Shown piece after piece: positions 2,182-24,782 of a stretch of 64,000 nt of DNA (its first letter is position 1; each line of letters opens with the position of its first letter). The notes below the pieces were generated by a model. It did not search any database, was not told the origin of the DNA, and saw only the letters and a list, made by a program, of their open reading frames with translations. The stretch comes from Candidatus Daviesbacteria bacterium (lineage in GTDB: Bacteria; Patescibacteriota; Microgenomatia; Daviesbacterales; UBA10151). The position numbers were made by a program, and so were the translations under genes. Where the stretch lies: NCBI GenBank assembly GCA_016186955.1, contig JACPKP010000003.1, positions 258,290-322,289 of the forward strand, in the 5' to 3' direction.

Positions 2182-3033
2182 ATGACAAAGGAAGTAGATA
2201 TGGATGAGCAAAGCTCTTCTTTGAATAAAATCATTGACGGAAAAACATTGGCGCTAGAACATGAGGAAAAGTTAAGGCAAACCCTGGCCCAATTTAAAAA
2301 CGGGCGCCTGCCAAAACTGGTCAGTTTTGTAAACAAAAACGATGAACCTTCCGTAAAATATACAAACATGAAATCAAAAAAAGCAGAGGCACTCGGGATC
2401 CAATTTATCACCAGGAAAATTTCCCCCGGGACAAAATACTCATTGATCACCAGGGAGATTAAAAAATATAATGTTGACCCTTCAATAGACGGGATAATGG
2501 TGCAGCTGCCTATCCCTGAGAGTGTTTTAGATGGGAAATTACCCAAGGAGTTGTTGGATAAAATTTTACCAGAGAAGGACGTGGATGGTTTAACTGAGAG
2601 ATCTCAATATCTGCCTGCCACAGTCAAAGGGGTGATGACAATTTTAGAATCCGAGGGGGTTTTGGGGAAGGGTAAAGTGATCAGAGTGTTGGGAGGGGTG
2701 CATGGGATGGTGGGTTCAAGTTTGGTAAAAGCGCTTCATGGAATGCATGAGAAAGTGATAGGGGTGTCCAAATCTGATCCGGCAATAAAGACTTTAGCCA
2801 GGTGGGCGGATATTTTAATCAGTGCGGTGGGACAGCCTAATCTTGTAACTGAAGATATGGTCAAACCCGGGGCGGTGGTGGTGGATGTCGGCAAAGATGT
2901 TGATACTGAAAATGTAATGAAAAAAGTTTCCAGGATTACCCCCAAGATTGGTGGTGTCGGCCCCATGACAGTTATCTCTTTGATGGAAAATGTGACTGAG
3001 GCATTTTGCCGAAGTCATCCTGAGCGATCCTGA
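2182..3033 (+). CDS. folD: bifunctional methylenetetrahydrofolate dehydrogenase/cyclohydrolase
   Basis: 283 aa; N-terminal IIDGK, C-terminal GGVGPMTVISLMENV typical of FolD; nucleotide-binding loop divergent. Confidence 0.85.
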   Translation: MTKEVDMDEQSSSLNKIIDGKTLALEHEEKLRQTLAQFKNGRLPKLVSFVNKNDEPSVKYTNMKSKKAEALGIQFITRKISPGTKYSLITREIKKYNVDPSIDGIMVQLPIPESVLDGKLPKELLDKILPEKDVDGLTERSQYLPATVKGVMTILESEGVLGKGKVIRVLGGVHGMVGSSLVKALHGMHEKVIGVSKSDPAIKTLARWADILISAVGQPNLVTEDMVKPGAVVVDVGKDVDTENVMKKVSRITPKIGGVGPMTVISLMENVTEAFCRSHPERS

Positions 3034-3127
3034 GCTTGCCGAAGGAGAGTCGAAGGATCTGATAAATTTTCCTAGCTCGTGATTTCGCGAACCGTTTTCT
3101 AGAAATTAATTAGTATTTACCAGTAAA

Positions 3128-3196
3128 CTGTCATCCTGAGCGTAGCGAAGGATATAATTAAATTATATTCTTCGGCTTTCAGCCTCAGAATGACAG
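3128..3196. repeat. long imperfect palindromic element (GTCATCCTGAGCG...CGAAGGAT family)
   Basis: ctgtcatcctgagcgtagcgaaggatataatt/aattatattcttcgg...cagcctcagaatgacag near-perfect hairpin; related fragment at 3030-3060; spurious minus ORF 3117-3353 spans it. Confidence 0.6.
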
Positions 3197-4428: not shown

Positions 4429-4475
4429 TCATTTTGACTACGTCGCTAGACAACCTTCTCTTTGGGTGGGTGGGG

Positions 4476-5159
4476 CTAGTTAAAATCCTCAGGATTAATT
4501 TCCCAGGGTAGTACAAAACCATCATTTTCTTTTGCCAACTCGTAAAGCTTTACATGATCTTCTAAACTTTTTGCCTGGAAGTAAATTTTCCCGTCACCTG
4601 TAAATCTATCCACCTTTAATTCTAATCCTCTCCAGGTACAGTTTAAGCCATACCCCAAAGGATGCCCCGCAGTATTTTGGTTTCTTTTCTCCAACTCTTG
4701 CTTTGCCCTTTCCGTAATGTCGCTTAGTATAACTATTTGGGGGTTTGTCTGATTGGGATAAAATTTTTGCAATAATCCTCTTGAAAATGCTTCATATATC
4801 GGCGAAAATATGCCTGCAACAAAACTATCACTTCCTGCAATCATACTCCAGTCTCTCCCGCAGGCTTCTTTAGCAGCGGCAGCTGAATAAAGGATTTTCC
4901 AGTATAACCTGTGATCATCCCTGCCCTGATCCCAAACAGGCCTGCCCTTACTCTTTCTTGCAGCTATCACTGCCGGATCAGTTGGCGCTATGTGATTAAG
5001 GATTCCATCATTCCAGAGAATTTCAATAAAATCTTCCCTGGTTTGTTCATCTAAGATGAAAAAAATGTCCAAGGATTCCTGCAAAGAATCTTGCCAGGTA
5101 TATTTAGTCCGTTCGTTAAACATGGGAAAAATTATATCAAATTTTTGCACCAAAGTCAA
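4476..5159 (-). CDS. hypothetical protein (227 aa)
   Basis: ORF only; no recognisable family. Confidence 0.4.
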   Translation of the reverse strand: MTLVQKFDIIFPMFNERTKYTWQDSLQESLDIFFILDEQTREDFIEILWNDGILNHIAPTDPAVIAARKSKGRPVWDQGRDDHRLYWKILYSAAAAKEACGRDWSMIAGSDSFVAGIFSPIYEAFSRGLLQKFYPNQTNPQIVILSDITERAKQELEKRNQNTAGHPLGYGLNCTWRGLELKVDRFTGDGKIYFQAKSLEDHVKLYELAKENDGFVLPWEINPEDFN

Positions 5160-8453: not shown

Positions 8454-8846
8454 TTGCTTCAACAAAAAGATGATATAATCTCTGATTGGTCTACCCTAGG
8501 AGGAGAAAGCATAGAAGGTGAAAATGCTCAAGCTGCATTCTTGCGGGTAGTGAAAGAACTTCTTAGCATTGAGCTTAAAATGAAACAGATTTATCCTGTT
8601 TATGACTATTTTCATAACACTCTGGGTAAAATTAATTATGTATTCTACGCTGAAGTTAAAAAATCTTTAGACTTCAATCCTTTAAAAGAGAATATTTCAT
8701 CATCTTGGGTTACTTTTTCAGATACTTTAAAACTTCTATTTTCTGTTCATACCAAACAGGATGTAATAGTGGGAGAAAGGGTTATACACTTAAAAGAGCG
8801 CCAAGATGAAGCCAGCCAACAGCTTGACACCCTCCGGGTGTATTAG
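8454..8846 (+). CDS. hypothetical protein (130 aa), possibly degenerate Nudix-like; C-terminal codons lie inside repeat B
   Basis: weak REx2EExG-like LRVVKELLSIELK; last 7 codons (QLDTLRVY) are encoded by repeat copy starting 8826. Confidence 0.3.
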   Translation: MLQQKDDIISDWSTLGGESIEGENAQAAFLRVVKELLSIELKMKQIYPVYDYFHNTLGKINYVFYAEVKKSLDFNPLKENISSSWVTFSDTLKLLFSVHTKQDVIVGERVIHLKERQDEASQQLDTLRVY

Positions 8847-8916
8847 CCATGCACTACGAAGAGTGCATGGCCCTGAACCCCTAGTGGTTCATGGGCTTTC
8901 CACCTTCTCTTTGGGT
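8826..8916. repeat. 91-bp dispersed repeat B copy 1 (three internal hairpins)
   Basis: identical to 9486-9576: tgacaccctccgggtgtattagccatgcactacgaagagtgcatggccctgaacccctagtggttcatgggctttccaccttctctttggg. Confidence 0.9.
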
Positions 8917-8920
8917 AAAT

Positions 8921-8958
8921 GGGCAGATTACAATCCTGAGCTTGCCGCAGAACTTACT
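8921..8958. repeat. 38-bp repeat A copy 1
   Basis: tgggcagattacaatcctgagcttgccg..., near-identical copy at 10080-10117; related atcctgagcttgccgaagg at 3035-3056. Confidence 0.8.
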
Positions 8959-8981
8959 TCTTGTGCAATGGTATTCCACAT

Positions 8982-9445
8982 TTAGTCTTGCCTGTCTTGC
9001 AAGGCCAGGCCTTGTGAACTTTTTAGATCTTCACATATGTCAATTGATAATCTTTTACCTGCCCAGCTCCCAACTCGTCTTATATGAACTATATCTCCAG
9101 GCTTTGGTGTTACTTTTTTTAGATCATCAAACCCTACAAGCTCTACATCCGTTAATGTCACGTTTTCATCTGAATATCGTGTCGGATTTAATGGGTATAT
9201 GGCGCCCAACCCATATGCACTCCATCTCTATCTTTCGGATGATATTCTTCAACTTTTCCAATAATATATATTTCGTGAAATACCATTTCTCTTCCCCAAA
9301 AAGTTTTTATAAGTTCCCCACTCTCATTTGCTTGAACCAACAATTCATTTGCTGTTTTTTGTTTTCTGAGTATCTCCTCTACCACTTCAAGAGGACTTTT
9401 ACCCTGATTCAATTCAGTCATGATATGGTATATTAACAGGAACAA
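8982..9445 (-). CDS. hypothetical protein, two overlapping ORFs (8982-9209 and 9188-9445) probably one frameshifted gene
   Basis: ORFs overlap by 22 nt in different frames inside repeat-rich cluster. Confidence 0.3.
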
Positions 9446-9457
9446 AACAAATTATCA

Positions 9458-9482
9458 ACCCTAATCACTACGTGGGCGACGA
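9458..9482. repeat. 23-bp repeat C copy 1
   Basis: ccctaatcactacgtgggcgacg vs 10036-10058 ccctaagcactacgtgggcgaag. Confidence 0.7.
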
Positions 9483-9485
9483 GTC

Positions 9486-9576
9486 TGACACCCTCCGGGT
9501 GTATTAGCCATGCACTACGAAGAGTGCATGGCCCTGAACCCCTAGTGGTTCATGGGCTTTCCACCTTCTCTTTGGG
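9486..9576. repeat. 91-bp dispersed repeat B copy 2
   Basis: 100% identical to 8826-8916; partial copy of its 3' end at 4453-4472. Confidence 0.9.
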
Positions 9577-9682
9577 GTGGGTTTAAGACCGCCAGACCGC
9601 AAGCTTTGCTGACTTCATACCTAATTACTCAGAAAAATATGCAGGACAATATGCCAGTGCCTAAAAAAACAGATTTGATTAG

Positions 9683-9951
9683 TTACAATGCCGAGGTGGC
9701 TTTTTGATCTATATTATTTACTCTTTTCTCTAAATTATCGAATTCATCCCTGGTTGGGGTATCATCCTCCAAATATGCAAATTGTTTACCCAGTTTGTCT
9801 ATTCTAGCTGTTAGATTTTTTTCTACCTGATCCAACTTTATATCCAAACCACCTACTTTTTTGTCAACTTTATCAATTTTGTTTAGTAATTCCTGTTGAA
9901 GGGCGCTTTAACCATTAATAATAACCTGAAGCATTTTTTGAGTGTCATTCA
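9683..9951 (-). pseudogene. frameshifted small coiled-coil protein gene
   Basis: Minus strand: ATG at 9951 gives MNDTQKMLQVIING then stop; a shifted frame continues open to 9683 (SALQQELLNKIDKVDKKVGGLDIKLDQVEKNL...). Confidence 0.3.
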
Positions 9952-10035
9952 TTACACAGAAAGTATATATTGATAAATAGTTATTTTCAATTACCAAATA
10001 TACAAACATTATCTCAAATATGGATAAAGCAGGCC

Positions 10036-10058
10036 CCTAAGCACTACGTGGGCGAAGC
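10036..10058. repeat. 23-bp repeat C copy 2
   Basis: see 9458-9482. Confidence 0.7.
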
Positions 10059-10079
10059 CGCATTTGACGCGGGGGTAGG

Positions 10080-10117
10080 TGGGCAGATTACAATCCTGAG
10101 CTTGCCGAAAGACTTAG
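10080..10117. repeat. 38-bp repeat A copy 2
   Basis: gggcagattacaatcctgagcttgccgaaagacttag. Confidence 0.8.
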
Positions 10118-10146
10118 TTTGTACCCAACTACCAGAATTCAAACCT

Positions 10147-10842
10147 TTAAAACATCATTAGTTTTCTAGCACGTTCAAAGTCACCTTGAGTATTCAAATG
10201 CTGGGCTGCTAAAACTATGGCTGTAGTGATTTTAGGATCAACTCCTATTCTGGGAAATTCCGGATTAAGGCGGTTTTGCATGATTGTAGACGTAAAAAGT
10301 AAAACTTCGTCAATCGGTATTGTGAAGGGGATTATTAGTTCACCCCTATCTAATTTCTGTTGACTTACATCAAATTCAATCCCATCCGCAAAATAGAAAT
10401 AAGTTTCCTGAGGAGATCTACCAGCCAAAACCGGGCCTATGCCGAGCTGAACCACTGATAATTTACCGGAAGCTCCAAGTTCATCCTTTAATTCCTGAAG
10501 CGCATTAATCATTGGTTTTCCGTTTTCAACAGAATCTGCTGGGAGTTCAACCTGATAAAGTCTCTCCAGTCCAGGGCGCAACTGGAGTAAAAGAATCACA
10601 TTGCCTTGTGGAGTTAGAGCAAACACGTAAGAACCATCCCCATCCTTTAGTATTGACCGATCGCTTCTTTGGACCCTTCCACCTAAAGTGGCATCATACA
10701 CAACCTGTCTCACCGGTCTCCATTTACTGGCTGTCTGAAGAACATCATCGGTTATAACTGAGTAACCAAATTCAGGTATTCTTGTTTCTAAACTGCTTAC
10801 TACTGCAAGGATGTGTTGTTCCCTCTCAGAGGTAAAATTCAT
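10147..10842 (-). CDS. hypothetical protein, possibly Nudix-family hydrolase
   Basis: 231 aa; degenerate Nudix box GKPMINALQELKDELG; weak. Confidence 0.35.
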   Translation of the reverse strand: MNFTSEREQHILAVVSSLETRIPEFGYSVITDDVLQTASKWRPVRQVVYDATLGGRVQRSDRSILKDGDGSYVFALTPQGNVILLLQLRPGLERLYQVELPADSVENGKPMINALQELKDELGASGKLSVVQLGIGPVLAGRSPQETYFYFADGIEFDVSQQKLDRGELIIPFTIPIDEVLLFTSTIMQNRLNPEFPRIGVDPKITTAIVLAAQHLNTQGDFERARKLMMF

Positions 10843-10859
10843 TGTTTAATTATACATTA

Positions 10860-11060
10860 TCAAATAGTGAATTCAATCCTTGGTGGGTGGCTGACGGGTA
10901 ATGCTCCCGCTGCCTCCTGTTCCACAAACAGGCGTTCTACTTTTGAACTACAGCCACCAATCGGAGGAAACTTCAACTGATTAAGACGCGAAGCGTCATA
11001 AAAGTTTCCAAGATCGCCTGCCCGCCTAAATTTCAATTTTGGCGGGACAGGGGTAAACAC
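10860..11060 (-). CDS. small hypothetical protein (66 aa), relatively GC-rich
   Basis: ORF only; contains hairpin cccgcc-N14-ggcggg. Confidence 0.2.
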   Translation of the reverse strand: MFTPVPPKLKFRRAGDLGNFYDASRLNQLKFPPIGGCSSKVERLFVEQEAAGALPVSHPPRIEFTI

Positions 11061-21515: not shown

Positions 21516-22448
21516 ATGTTAAAACTATTTAACTCACTTTCGCGCAAAATTGAGGAGTTTGTTCCGCTTAATCCCCCAAAAGTTGGCGTATATGCCTGCG
21601 GGCCCACTGTTTATGACTTCGCCCATATCGGAAACTTAAGGAGTTTTGTAATGTATGATATTTTGCGCAGGGTTCTGGAAGCAGATGGGTATGAAGTAAC
21701 TTTTGTAGAAAACATCACGGATATTGATGACAAAATTATTAAAAAAGCCAAAGAAAAAAACCTGGATATGGCAGAATTTACAAAGCAGTATACGGAATAT
21801 TTCTTGGAAGACTTAAACAAACTAAATATAAAACTTCCTGATGTCCAGCCCAAAGCGACTGAGCATATCAGCCTGATGGTTAAATATATAGAGGTTTTAC
21901 TAGACAAAGGGTTGGCTTATGCCGAAAAAGACGGGTCGGTATATTTTGACATCTCAAAATTTCCGGATTATGGAAAATTATCCGGGGTTGAAAAACGCGA
22001 GCTTAAAACAGGGACCAGGGTGCTTTCGGATGAATACACAAAAGAAAATATCCAGGATTTTGCACTATGGAAAGGAGTTGAGGCGGATGAGTTTGGTTGG
22101 GACAGCCCCTGGGGAAAAGGCAGGCCGGGCTGGCATATCGAATGTTCGGTGATGAGCCAAAAGTATTTGGGTGATACCCTGGACATCCATGCAGGAGGAA
22201 TAGATTTGATGTTTCCCCATCATGAAAACGAAATTGCCCAATCAGAGGGAAAAACAGGCAAACTATTTGCCAAATTTTTTGTTCATGGCGAACATCTTTT
22301 GGTTGATGCCCAAAAGATGAGTAAATCCTTAAATAATTTTTATACATTAAAGGACATTGAGGAGAAAGGCCTGCCTGCCCTGCCCTGCCGGCAGGCGGGC
22401 GGCAGGCAGGGTTTTGATGCCTTGGCTTACCGCTTCGTGAAATGGTGA
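21516..22448 (+). CDS. cysS: cysteine--tRNA ligase, N-terminal catalytic part (gene apparently interrupted by frameshift near 22440)
   Basis: HIGN (HIGH) and KMSKS class I motifs; stops after GC-rich palindromic insertion. Confidence 0.85.
   Translation: MLKLFNSLSRKIEEFVPLNPPKVGVYACGPTVYDFAHIGNLRSFVMYDILRRVLEADGYEVTFVENITDIDDKIIKKAKEKNLDMAEFTKQYTEYFLEDLNKLNIKLPDVQPKATEHISLMVKYIEVLLDKGLAYAEKDGSVYFDISKFPDYGKLSGVEKRELKTGTRVLSDEYTKENIQDFALWKGVEADEFGWDSPWGKGRPGWHIECSVMSQKYLGDTLDIHAGGIDLMFPHHENEIAQSEGKTGKLFAKFFVHGEHLLVDAQKMSKSLNNFYTLKDIEEKGLPALPCRQAGGRQGFDALAYRFVKW
22370..22410. repeat. GC-rich palindromic element inside cysS
   Basis: cctgcctgccctgccctgccggcaggcgggcggcaggcagg; same family as 40205-40244; coordinates +/-1. 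Confidence 0.85.
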
Positions 22449-22807
22449 GGGATTGGGAGAAGCCAAAAATTGGCTGCGCCCAGTATGAAGAAGATTTTTT
22501 TAAAGCGCTGGACAACGACTTAAACACACCTCAAGCCTTGGCTGTTATGTGGTATTTAATCAAATCCGATTACCCTACTTCCGCAAAGGCAGAAAGCCTG
22601 CTCAAGATGGACAAAGTTTTGGGGCTTGGGCTTGATAAATATTTGGGTAAACAAATTGATGTACCCGGTCAAGTACAGAAATTGGTTGATGAAAGGGAAC
22701 AGGCTAGAAAAGACCGCGATTTTGAAAAATCCGACCAGCTTAGAAAAAGAATAAAAGATATGGGATTTGAGATAGAGGATACACCTGAAGGTCCAAAAAT
22801 CAGATGA
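22442..22807 (+). CDS. cysS: cysteine--tRNA ligase, C-terminal part in different frame
   Basis: DNDLNTPQALAVMW matches CysS anticodon-binding helix motif; overlaps 5' ORF by 7 nt. Confidence 0.75.
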   Translation: MVRDWEKPKIGCAQYEEDFFKALDNDLNTPQALAVMWYLIKSDYPTSAKAESLLKMDKVLGLGLDKYLGKQIDVPGQVQKLVDEREQARKDRDFEKSDQLRKRIKDMGFEIEDTPEGPKIR

Positions 22808-22922: not shown

Positions 22923-22947
22923 TTTGAAAGAATAACCCTACGCACGC

Positions 22948-22970
22948 AAGGCGTCCCCTTTTGAGGCTAA
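22948..22970. repeat. 23-bp direct repeat copy 1 (with left and right extensions 22934-22981)
   Basis: aaggcgtccccttttgaggctaa; right extension encodes C-terminus IEDG-stop of transposase. Confidence 0.85.
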
Positions 22971-23647
22971 CCATCCTCAATTATGATATTTTGTATTTCC
23001 AATAGATCATCACTTTTTTCAACAAAAGCCTTGTACGATAGGGTAGGGTTTGTTTTTGAGAAATATGCCAATACCTCTTGTGGTTTGACCCAATCTGTTT
23101 TTCTTATTTCTAAGTACTCGGGGTAAGAAGACGGTTGCCCCTGCAAGGCGTCCCCTTTTGAGGCTAAAGCCTGTTTATGGATGTATTTGGACAGGTAAAC
23201 GAATTGTTGGTCAGTAACAACATTAACAGCTTTGTATACATCTTGATATAATCCGCCTACTCGTTTGTATTTACGGTTAAAATACATAGTGTATCTAGTG
23301 CAAAGGGAATTCATGAATTTGTCAATGGATTGTGCACTTCTTTGTTTGATCAAGAAATGGAAATGGTTCGGCATCAAACAATACGCCAATAAATTAATCT
23401 CGTCAGCAAAATTATTTAAACGGAGTAATTGTAAAATTTTTGCCCGTTCCTTATAAGAAATATTGGGATCAGACAATTTTTTCTTTAAATCAGTTTCGTT
23501 TTTGGGAAGCAAGTATTCCTTTAGATAATACAAAAAAACACCATAGTCTTGTTGGTCTGAAAAGATTAATCTTTTTTCAACTCCACGATTATAAATATGG
23601 TAATAACTATTTTCTAAGTATTGTTTATTTGAATTACGTGAAGGCAC
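22967..23647 (-). CDS. REP-associated tyrosine transposase (RAYT) / IS200-family Y1 HUH transposase
   Basis: YHIYNRG N-terminus, HUH motif LMPNHFHFLI, GGLYQ and KYIHKQ tyrosine motifs; 226 aa. Confidence 0.75.
   Translation of the reverse strand: MPSRNSNKQYLENSYYHIYNRGVEKRLIFSDQQDYGVFLYYLKEYLLPKNETDLKKKLSDPNISYKERAKILQLLRLNNFADEINLLAYCLMPNHFHFLIKQRSAQSIDKFMNSLCTRYTMYFNRKYKRVGGLYQDVYKAVNVVTDQQFVYLSKYIHKQALASKGDALQGQPSSYPEYLEIRKTDWVKPQEVLAYFSKTNPTLSYKAFVEKSDDLLEIQNIIIEDG
23145..23167. repeat. 23-bp repeat copy 2, in-frame inside transposase ORF
   Basis: encodes LASKGDAL on minus strand. Confidence 0.85.
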
Positions 23648-23696
23648 GTTGTGTTAATAGCATACTTAATTTTAAATTGCAAGCTTCTACGATCAC

Positions 23697-23719
23697 AAGG
23701 CGTCCCCTTTTGAGGCTAA
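23697..23719. repeat. 23-bp repeat copy 3 (+ right extension to 23730)
   Basis: cacaaggcgtccccttttgaggctaaccatcctcaat. Confidence 0.85.
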
Positions 23720-23730
23720 CCATCCTCAAT

Positions 23731-23759
23731 TTGACACGGGGTAACTATTATGGGATAAT
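23731..23759 (+). promoter_or_regulatory. sigma70-like promoter TTGACA-N17-GATAAT for exonuclease gene
   Basis: -35 abuts the repeat right flank; -10 ends 6 nt before ATG 23766. Confidence 0.45.
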
Positions 23760-23765
23760 GTTAAA

Positions 23766-24413
23766 ATGAAGGAAGAGCAATCTTTAGCTGAAAAGCGGCA
23801 GTTAATTTACGACCGTGGCCGGGAAATAGTGATGAATGCCCCTCAGCTTTATGTAGACGTAGATGTTGAAGCTGATGGGATAGCAGGTTATGGATCAATG
23901 CTATCCATAGGCGCCCAAAGCCCTACAGGTGAAGCGTTCTATAGTGAAATTAAACCTTTATTTGAAGAATTCATTCCAGGTAACAGGAAATTTTGCGAAG
24001 ATCATAATTTATCTCATGAACGTTTATTATTAGAGGCTTCGGATTATCAGAGTGTTATGGGTAATTTTTACAAATGGATTGAAGGATTAAAAAAAGCGGA
24101 TATTGGAAAATCCGCTGTATTTACAGCATTTAATGCGGCGTATGATTGGGCTTTTATTGATTTATATTTTACAAAAGCCGGATTTGAAAATCCCTTTGGC
24201 ATCGCCCCTTTTGATTTAAAATCACTGGCTTTACCGTTGACAGGGAATTGGGATTGGAAAATGACCTCTAAAAGCAGGTTACCAAGCATTATTATACCGG
24301 ATGGGGATTTTACCCACCATGCTTTAGAAGATGCCCAATACCAACAAAAACTGCATTTTGGTATGGCAGGATTATTAGGAAAAAGAAACTATCTCGATAT
24401 CGCCCATTATTAA
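23766..24413 (+). CDS. DEDDh-family 3'-5' exonuclease (DnaQ/RNase T-like)
   Basis: Exo I YVDVDVEADG, Exo II FNAAYDWAFID, Exo III HHALEDAQ. Confidence 0.7.
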   Translation: MKEEQSLAEKRQLIYDRGREIVMNAPQLYVDVDVEADGIAGYGSMLSIGAQSPTGEAFYSEIKPLFEEFIPGNRKFCEDHNLSHERLLLEASDYQSVMGNFYKWIEGLKKADIGKSAVFTAFNAAYDWAFIDLYFTKAGFENPFGIAPFDLKSLALPLTGNWDWKMTSKSRLPSIIIPDGDFTHHALEDAQYQQKLHFGMAGLLGKRNYLDIAHY

Positions 24414-24425
24414 CCCTACGCACGT

Positions 24426-24448
24426 AAGGCGTCCCCTTTTGAGGCTAA
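24426..24448. repeat. 23-bp repeat copy 4 (+ left extension from 24412 overlapping exonuclease stop codon)
   Basis: aaccctacgcacgtaaggcgtccccttttgaggctaa. Confidence 0.85.
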
Positions 24449-24458
24449 AAAATAATGC

Positions 24459-24782
24459 TTGACAAAACGCATTAATTATAAGATCATACTAACCATGGCA
24501 GAATGTAAATTTGATTGTCCGAATATAGATAATTGTCCACAATTAAAAGGTCAATGCCCTGCTTTTCCTACTGATACAACTGAAAGTGCCCTAGATTGGT
24601 GTAACCAGGTAGTTTCAGGGCGGAAGCAAGTCACTGAGCAGGTGGTAAGGAGAGAAGAAGTTATCGGCAGAAACCCTTTATTCCATAGTTTTACTGACAG
24701 TAGGATAGTTGGCAGACATACCCGGAAAATTTTTTTGGACGGCGATGTGGATGATTTGGAGCCTGACGATTATTTGAAATGA
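24459..24782 (+). CDS. Cys-rich small hypothetical protein (107 aa)
   Basis: ORF only. Confidence 0.3.
   Translation: MTKRINYKIILTMAECKFDCPNIDNCPQLKGQCPAFPTDTTESALDWCNQVVSGRKQVTEQVVRREEVIGRNPLFHSFTDSRIVGRHTRKIFLDGDVDDLEPDDYLK

Follow-up and report, generated by a model that had tools for sequence, protein, structure and literature searches.

In a genome of Candidatus Daviesbacteria (Microgenomates, Candidate Phyla Radiation [CPR]), a Nudix-like gene and tRNA-His flank a variable spacer that holds a cluster of short repeats, which we designate A, B, and C. We tentatively favor the explanation that these repeats are junction sequences duplicated by recombination of small gene segments into the spacer, with a hotspot in the tRNA-His trailer. 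The evidence comprises the repeats themselves, the orthology of both ends of B to flanking sequence in a close relative, the insertion of a hairpin doublet, broken genes between the repeats, and the absence of those genes from the relative. The analysis covers a 64-kb stretch of DNA, referred to as the window. Within it, the locus runs folD, ybaB, and recR, then a histidine kinase, a response regulator, and Obg, then the Nudix-like gene, the repeat region, a NudF-like gene, and tRNA-His (Table 1); the identities of folD and recR are backed by Pfam. The Obg encoded beside the locus shows 100% identity to a protein annotated as Candidatus Daviesbacteria. A preliminary description of the locus, made from the sequence alone, had proposed three decayed copies of a mobile C-B-A element, of the miniature inverted-repeat transposable element (MITE) kind, or alternatively a family of small structured RNAs.

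The physical layout given in that description stands: B is 91 bp long with two fully identical copies and three hairpins, A and C each recur at two sites in the repeat region, and the modules follow one another as B-A ... C-B ... C-(17 nt)-A. None of the A, B, and C patterns was present in any of 100 shuffled versions of the window, and for the 26- and 22-nt sub-patterns of B, 0/100 shuffles contained even one match. The modules form islands of 50–55% GC at gene ends, against a background of ~35% GC. The two A copies share an identical 27–28-nt core (8920/8921–8947 and 10080/10081–10107). Independent sequence data agree with the assembly: Logan unitigs from several sequencing runs of the same organism carry the same junctions as the window and end exactly k-1 bases inside B from both sides (L001 and L003 at 8854, L032 at 9547), so repeat B and its boundaries are independently confirmed. 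The DNA of B folds at -21.4 kcal/mol relative to a shuffle mean of -10.3 (z = -5.1), with hairpins 1 to 3 (hp1 to hp3) at 8827–8841, 8846–8871, and 8870–8896 on either strand. A and C fold no better than shuffles and are unstructured, and the composite that carries both (10030–10125) has no significant fold on either strand (z = +0.2 and +0.8).

Beyond the interval from 4.4 to 10.1 kb, no further copies of B, A, or C occur in the window. Exact-pattern scans likewise found no repeat copies in GTDB representative genomes, a set evidently without the source genome of the window, in JGI metagenomes, or in IMG/VR, where hp1, hp2, A, and an hp3-type hairpin each gave 0 matches. BLASTN against phage and plasmid records returned no repeat match, and a translated search with a 59-amino acid open reading frame (ORF) spanning B and A returned no homologue among 5.8 billion proteins. 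Within the window and the collections searched, the repeats are thus confined to this locus.

Table 1. Coordinates of the repeats, genes, and related features in the window.
Feature	Position	Strand	Details
A-like short motif	3027–3046	+	ATCCTGAGCTTGCCGAAGGA; after folD
Compact diverged C-core-A	4436–4493	+	C-like GACTACGTCGCTA, GACA, tail ACCTTCTCTTTGGG, A-like part; flanked by the 3' ends of recR and a convergent 227-aa gene
Nudix-like gene, 130 aa	8454–8846	+	Pfam NUDIX, 1.4e-4
Repeat B, copy 1	8825–8915	+	Head with hairpin 1 at 8825–8846; doublet 8847–8896; TTTCC; tail ACCTTCTCTTTGGG at 8902–8915
REP-like hairpin doublet, 50 nt	8847–8896		hp2 8846–8871, hp3 8870–8896; relative reads GTATTAG^TTTCC
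Repeat A, copy 1	8913–8959	+	47 nt; 87% identical to 10073–10119; 3' half with ATCCTGAGC...CGAAGGA-type motif
Cassette gene 1, frameshifted, uncharacterized family of ~140–160 aa	8982–9445	-	ORFs 9188–9445 and 8982–9209; shift near 9190–9215
Repeat C, copy 1	9459–9479	+	20/21 identical to 10035–10055
Repeat B, copy 2	9486–9576	+	91 nt; 100% identical to copy 1
Displaced pseudo 3' end of tRNA-His with trailer	9563–9585	-	Minus strand CCCACCCCAAAGAGAAGGT; true end and trailer in the relative GCCACCCCAAGAGAAGGTG
Cassette gene 2, coiled-coil ORF	9683–9952	-	In-frame TAA 9908–9910; 54-aa ORF 9683–9847 left
Composite C-core-A, unsplit	10035–10119	+	C 10035–10055; core with small hairpin CCGCATTTGACGCGG 10058–10072; A 10073–10119
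Cassette gene 3, NudF/ADP-ribose pyrophosphatase-like, 231 aa, intact	10147–10842	-	PDB sequence matches, 2.7e-7
tRNA-His (GTG)	10885–10957	-	ARAGORN and Rfam; 3' end faces the repeat region; no encoded CCA

The origin of B emerged from comparison with a single close relative, L029 (GCA_964522265.1), whose Obg is 86% identical; in more distant Daviesbacteria (Obg 69–72% identical) the loci are non-syntenic here and give no comparison. The head of B is identical at 22/22 positions to the 3' flank of the Nudix-like gene in L029, and its tail with the next 5 nt matches the tRNA-His end and trailer in L029 at 18/19 positions, scores reached in 0/300 shuffles in either case. The two matching sites in L029 are unique and lie 1.6 kb apart, which argues that B is Nudix-to-tRNA-His spacer and no independent element. 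On this comparison, B fuses the hairpin natively found after the Nudix-like gene with the native tRNA-His trailer and the last bases of that tRNA. In L029, the stop codon of the Nudix-like gene is followed by TGACACCCTCCGGGTGTATTAG-TTTCC, with hp2 and hp3 absent; the TTTCC after hairpin 1 corresponds to the TTTCC after hairpin 3 in the window. Two genes not found in the window follow (encoding a 166-aa NUDIX protein and a 326-aa protein), and downstream of them TGACACCTTCTCTTGGGG abuts tRNA-His directly. The orthology also clarifies why B supplies the C-terminus of the Nudix-like ORF, as had been proposed. Its last six codons and stop fall within hairpin 1 of B because the ancestral stop was lost: the L029 orthologue ends ...SEGQ-TAG, two bases ahead of TGACACC, and the window has CAG at that codon, so reading continues to the TAG in GTATTAG.

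To the right of B copy 2, the minus strand reads ...ACCCACCCCAAAGAGAAGGTG, which corresponds to an old tRNA-His end (CCACC-C-CCA) with its trailer. Positions 9563–9581 match the L029 tRNA-His end and trailer at 18/19 positions, of which the tRNA proper contributes only ~5–9 nt of match. The present tRNA-His of the window has a trailer that differs from the old one. A tRNA-His fragment within B was considered and rejected, the match being limited to the last few bases and the trailer. As a separate observation, the window tRNA-His lacks an encoded CCA (CAGCCACC followed by CAC), whereas that of L029 (38–112) encodes it (CAGCCACC followed by CCA), and the old CCA-bearing end persists as a pseudo-end at 9577–9585.

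The remaining part of B is a pair of hairpins. Relative to L029, this 50-nt doublet reads as a precise insertion without target duplication. Both units are extragenic, GC-rich imperfect palindromes of 26–27 nt resembling repetitive extragenic palindromic (REP) sequences: a 10-bp stem closes a 6-nt loop in hp2, and the 10-bp stem of hp3 carries one bulge. On both strands the two fold independently of each other, in tandem, and form no inverted REP pair. A scan of GTDB representatives with the hp2 stems yielded mostly chance palindromes (Dyella and others), but two Thermodesulfobacteriota metagenome-assembled genomes carry GCCATGCACTACGTAGAGTGCATGGC, 25/26 identical to hp2 and followed by an hp3-like hairpin. 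The JGI metagenome scan located the hp2-type hairpin in ten contigs, from sources that include peat and sediment, in at least five contexts and followed by one to four related hairpins. These contexts include overlap with the G73-CCA end of tRNA-Ser and tRNA-Asp, a site next to GIY-YIG genes that follows a pseudo tRNA-Ser end, and a yggS–maf spacer; in other bacteria, the family occurs in tandem arrays of one to five units. The consensus is GCCNTGNAC..ACGTRG..GTNCANGGC, with a 10-bp stem and 6-nt loop. Across the related hairpins, 98% of cells are paired and 5/10 pairs show double changes, although this compensatory-change evidence is weak by itself because the sequences were chosen as hairpins.

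A covariance model of this family scored hp2 at 33–35 bits and hp3 at 14.6 bits. Run over all 64 kb with filters off, it recovered the two B copies only, and it detected no member in four other Daviesbacteria loci. No Rfam family matched the metagenome hairpin arrays. In other lineages the doublet thus acts as a REP-type unit; within the searched 64 kb it appears as a single arrival, later duplicated with B. It may have come as a mobile or transferred unit. A much less likely possibility is that the 25/26 identity to the Thermodesulfobacteriota hairpin marks DNA from another phylum, perhaps from a host. One metagenomic contig, L019 (Ga0315287_10119588), has at 650–2100 three tRNA-Ser genes interleaved with GIY-YIG endonuclease-like ORFs, and there the same doublet is joined to the 3' end of a pseudo tRNA-Ser; the arrangement resembles homing-endonuclease-driven duplication of tRNA ends.

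The spacer carries three minus-strand cassette genes, none of which is present at the L029 locus, where the two different genes stand instead. The disruption noted in the preliminary description is confirmed: a frameshift splits one of the intervening ORFs and an in-frame stop interrupts another, and two of the three cassette genes are now pseudogenes. In cassette gene 1, ORF 9188–9445 encodes the N-terminal half and ORF 8982–9209 the C-terminal half, and homologues of 137–162 aa (P0123, P0124, and P0126) span both in one frame. These homologues came from an exhaustive search with the N-terminal ORF alone; a word-based search with the frameshift-corrected fusion returned none. No Pfam, NCBIfam, or PHROG match was obtained. 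The same domain is present seven times in a 2,754-aa protein (P0122), and an 887-aa protein has four copies of it. It is apparently an undescribed repeat domain, as the single-domain homologues P0123, P0124, P0126, and P0127 lack a Pfam match. The context of one homologue (L037) contained no A- or C-like repeats. For cassette gene 2, the frame of the surviving ORF runs upstream to an ATG at 9952 with the TAA interrupting, and its sole PHROG match is weak (1.5e-4).

Around cassette gene 1, the order B-A-gene-C-B corresponds to C-B-A circularly permuted about the gene. A ~660-bp circle with a C-B-A junction, recombining with a chromosomal B, would yield B-A-gene 1-C-B; an equivalent picture is one of stacked cassettes with a single junction sequence between them. 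We infer the following order of events. The REP-like doublet would have inserted between the hairpin-1 part and the tRNA-His trailer part of the spacer, and short DNA segments, each with one small minus-strand gene, would then have recombined into the spacer. Under this scheme B recurs as a junction repeat together with its neighbors, A on one side and C on the other, because the segments recombined there. A second insertion of ~1.3 kb (about 9585–10884) would have pushed the old end and trailer away from tRNA-His and supplied the new trailer. The C-core-A sequences at 10035–10119 and 4436–4493 would represent the joined form of this junction. The pattern is presumed to come from recombination there, whether site-specific or homologous. 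On the same scheme, a circle or tandem junction would read C-CGAGTC-B-TAAAT-A, an empty site without cassette 1 would read Nudix-B-GTGGGTTT, and a genome is predicted that reads Nudix-hp1-TTTCC-ACCTTCTCTTGGGG-tRNA-His with nothing between.

The C-core-A composite recurs outside the repeat region. A virtual junction, C-TGACACC-tail-A, aligns over its full length to 10035–10119, where the core is shortened to TGAC-GC-GGGGG. Queried with the virtual C-core-A, the window gave 4436–4493 as the best non-self match, with a score of 23 against 17 for the next, unrelated match and 15 for the 99th percentile. The full-length alignment and this best match together indicate that C, core, and A form one composite in fixed order. 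The preliminary description was correct that a fragment of the B 3' end follows recR: 4453–4466 is identical to the B tail, and the similarity extends into an A-like stretch, with 4453–4492 being 77.5% identical to 8902–8940. With respect to the three C-B-A copies it had proposed, the composite in fixed order at both sites agrees, whereas B-A ... C-B is a circular permutation. In the window, the neighbors of the 227-aa gene (4476–5159) that adjoins the compact composite are recR and the histidine kinase, whereas in L029 (3240–3917) it lies between Obg and the response regulator. This move is a local rearrangement whose breakpoint on the window side bears the compact C-core-A. A-like sequence after folD, also anticipated, is present slightly to the left of where it had been placed (3035–3056), and a second copy of the motif at 3133–3152 falls inside a 69-nt palindromic element (3128–3196). 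The motif ATCCTGAGCNNNSCGAAGGA has 4 matches in the window, both A copies included, against 0.15 expected. In the same interval (3013–3196), the folD ORF terminates within a GTCATCCTGAGCGATCCTGAGC repeat, and the 69-nt element is near-perfectly palindromic and MITE-like.

Several considerations weigh against recombination of segments into the spacer. The locus and its surroundings contain no integrase, recombinase, or transposase; the ORFs are Nudix-like or uncharacterized. With a single close relative, the direction of change, insertion or deletion, is not polarized. Only ~5–9 nt of the tRNA proper is duplicated at 9577–9585, and A, aligned locally as a decayed tRNA-His 3' half, scored no better than shuffles (p 0.3–0.37), so that an origin of A as an attachment (att) sequence is no more than a conjecture. 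By the standard of site-specific recombination, 91 nt at 100% identity makes a long core, and recent segmental duplication or gene conversion would account for the matching B copies just as well. In the cassettes, promoter-like sites number 9 versus 7.2 in shuffles, which is no excess. The genome search spanned the 64-kb window only, and a dispersed family elsewhere remains compatible with the data.

Transposition of a ~155-bp non-autonomous C-B-A element to several sites, with truncated copies, would account for the three occurrences of the C-core-A order, one of them 4.4 kb away at 4436–4493, and would suit the GC-rich character of the modules, their location at gene ends, the presence of other small GC-rich insertions in the genome (the palindrome at 3128–3196 and another in cysS at 22369–22411), and a Y1 transposase gene. 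The hallmarks of such an element are missing, however. No terminal inverted repeats join the ends of B or link C with A, and target-site duplications, which the preliminary description had recommended looking for, were absent at B (flanks CAGCT/TAAAT and GAGTC/GTGGG), at the doublet (TATTAG/TTTCC), and at 4436–4493. The ends of B are orthologous to separate unique flanks in L029, the order B-A ... C-B is a circular permutation rather than two truncated copies, searches of the window and the collections turned up no further copy, and the translated B-A ORF had no homologue. We consider a mobile MITE family decidedly improbable and set this part of the earlier proposal aside; its companion suggestion of a hotspot for small insertions is upheld. 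Copying of hairpins by a Y1 transposase, with the mosaic assembled after the manner of bacterial interspersed mosaic elements (BIMEs), is unlikely as well. The hp2 and hp3 palindromes belong to a dispersed family found elsewhere in arrays, the insertion without target duplication is what Y1 transposition would give, and a Y1_Tnp gene is encoded at 22967–23647. That gene is nevertheless flanked by a different repeat (D1) and not by hp2/hp3-type hairpins, no other family member lies in the 64-kb window or the four other Daviesbacteria loci, and the two hairpins stand in tandem, without the inverted arrangement of a REP pair. None of A, C, hairpin 1, and the tail is a palindromic unit, and the mechanism would account for the 50-nt doublet alone, not for the A/B/C pattern.

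We assign similarly little probability to a functional role, in which B was kept twice to stop or stabilize transcripts between convergent or tandem genes, or as a small RNA. The strong fold on both strands (z about -5), the position of both B copies at gene boundaries, and the occurrence of related hairpins directly after tRNA genes elsewhere are in its favor. Nevertheless, Rfam at the gathering threshold reported two tRNAs only in the window, and no match overlapped any of the repeats when the limit was relaxed to E <= 10; Rfam thus lends no support to the structured RNA family suggested earlier, which stays a less probable alternative. A scan for intrinsic terminators missed the B hairpins, all three of which lack a downstream U-tract. 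Two copies of B that are 100% identical yield no covariation evidence, and L029 has hairpin 1 alone. Duplication of junction sequences by recombination thus stays our preferred account. A more specific version of it is very unlikely: that C-core-A is the recombination site of integrase-less single-gene mini-cassettes, stacking in integron fashion in a CPR tRNA-His trailer, the site being trailer-derived and the recombinase encoded elsewhere.

Other repeat clusters are present in the window. At 22938–24460, four direct copies of a 33–45-nt repeat (CCCTACGCACGCAAGGCGTCCCCTTTTGAGGCTAA...) bracket two genes, an IS200-like Y1 transposase (22967–23647, minus strand) and an Rv2179c-like 3'-5' exonuclease (23766–24413, plus strand). 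One copy (23135–23179) lies inside the transposase ORF, making this another cassette-like repeat cluster, and the first 10 nt of the repeat (CCCTACGCAC) resemble the start of C (CCCTAAGCAC). At 21516–22807, a cysteinyl-tRNA synthetase-like frame is split into two ORFs by the 43-nt, 84% GC palindrome at 22369–22411.

If segments did recombine into the spacer, the locus would be a small example of gene gain and loss in reduced CPR genomes, with a tRNA-adjacent spacer as a landing pad where each event copies the junction and most arrivals become pseudogenes. The REP-like hairpin family is apparently undescribed, having no Rfam match; it is near-unchanged across distant phyla, is often fused to tRNA CCA ends, and could serve for study as a mobile or transferred unit. 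The locus is built of known kinds of parts and represents fairly ordinary genome scarring. Its value is descriptive, leaving current views in place while urging caution against labeling every modular repeat a MITE.

Among known systems, integrative elements with tRNA-targeting tyrosine integrases generate att repeats and tandem islands at tRNA 3' ends. The present locus shares with them the insertions downstream of a tRNA 3' end, direct repeats bracketing segments, a putative displaced tRNA end and trailer 1.3 kb away, and inserts absent from the closest relative. It differs in that such elements have an integrase at the insert end, and none is found among the ORFs of 8846–10885. The inserts here are also only 0.5–1.3 kb with single small genes, few tRNA bases are duplicated, and the 91-nt repeat is mostly trailer and neighbor-gene flank, unlike att repeats. 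Integron cassettes with attC sites and Xer-dependent dif modules are single-gene cassette systems, and likewise combine single small genes in one orientation with a recurring junction site; the circular-permutation pattern fits integration of a circle. Unlike integron cassettes, the junction lacks an attC-like imperfect dyad (z = +0.2), and attC-like folding of C-core-A was ruled out, as the fold is no better than that of shuffles. No attI or dif-like XerC/XerD half-sites were recognized at the locus, and no intI was found among the locus ORFs, the whole window not having been scanned ORF by ORF. Pneumococcal BOX elements are modular boxA-boxB-boxC repeats with >100 dispersed copies per genome. 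They resemble A, B, and C in having three short modules in fixed order and partial combinations, with stable hairpins in intergenic positions, but the modules here are restricted to a single ~6-kb zone, with unique flanking sequence as the source of two.

The closest counterparts of hp2 and hp3 are the REP, BIME, and REPIN systems (REPINs being two inverted REPs in one long hairpin) with their REP-associated tyrosine transposases (RAYTs) in Enterobacteria and Pseudomonas (PMC3116915, PMC3337134), in which imperfect GC-rich palindromes of 20–40 nt likewise sit at the ends of genes. Also shared are tandem clustering in other genomes, the lack of target duplication, and a Y1 gene in the genome. 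Those systems have tens to hundreds of copies per genome, whereas the 64 kb here hold one doublet, duplicated with B, whose hairpins lack the inverted pairing of a REPIN; a single-copy RAYT gene is flanked by its own REPs, whereas the Y1 gene here (22967–23647) is flanked by the unrelated D1 repeat. REPIN-RAYT systems are described as mostly vertically inherited (10.1101/2022.05.22.493013), whereas the hp2/hp3 family is near-identical across phyla.

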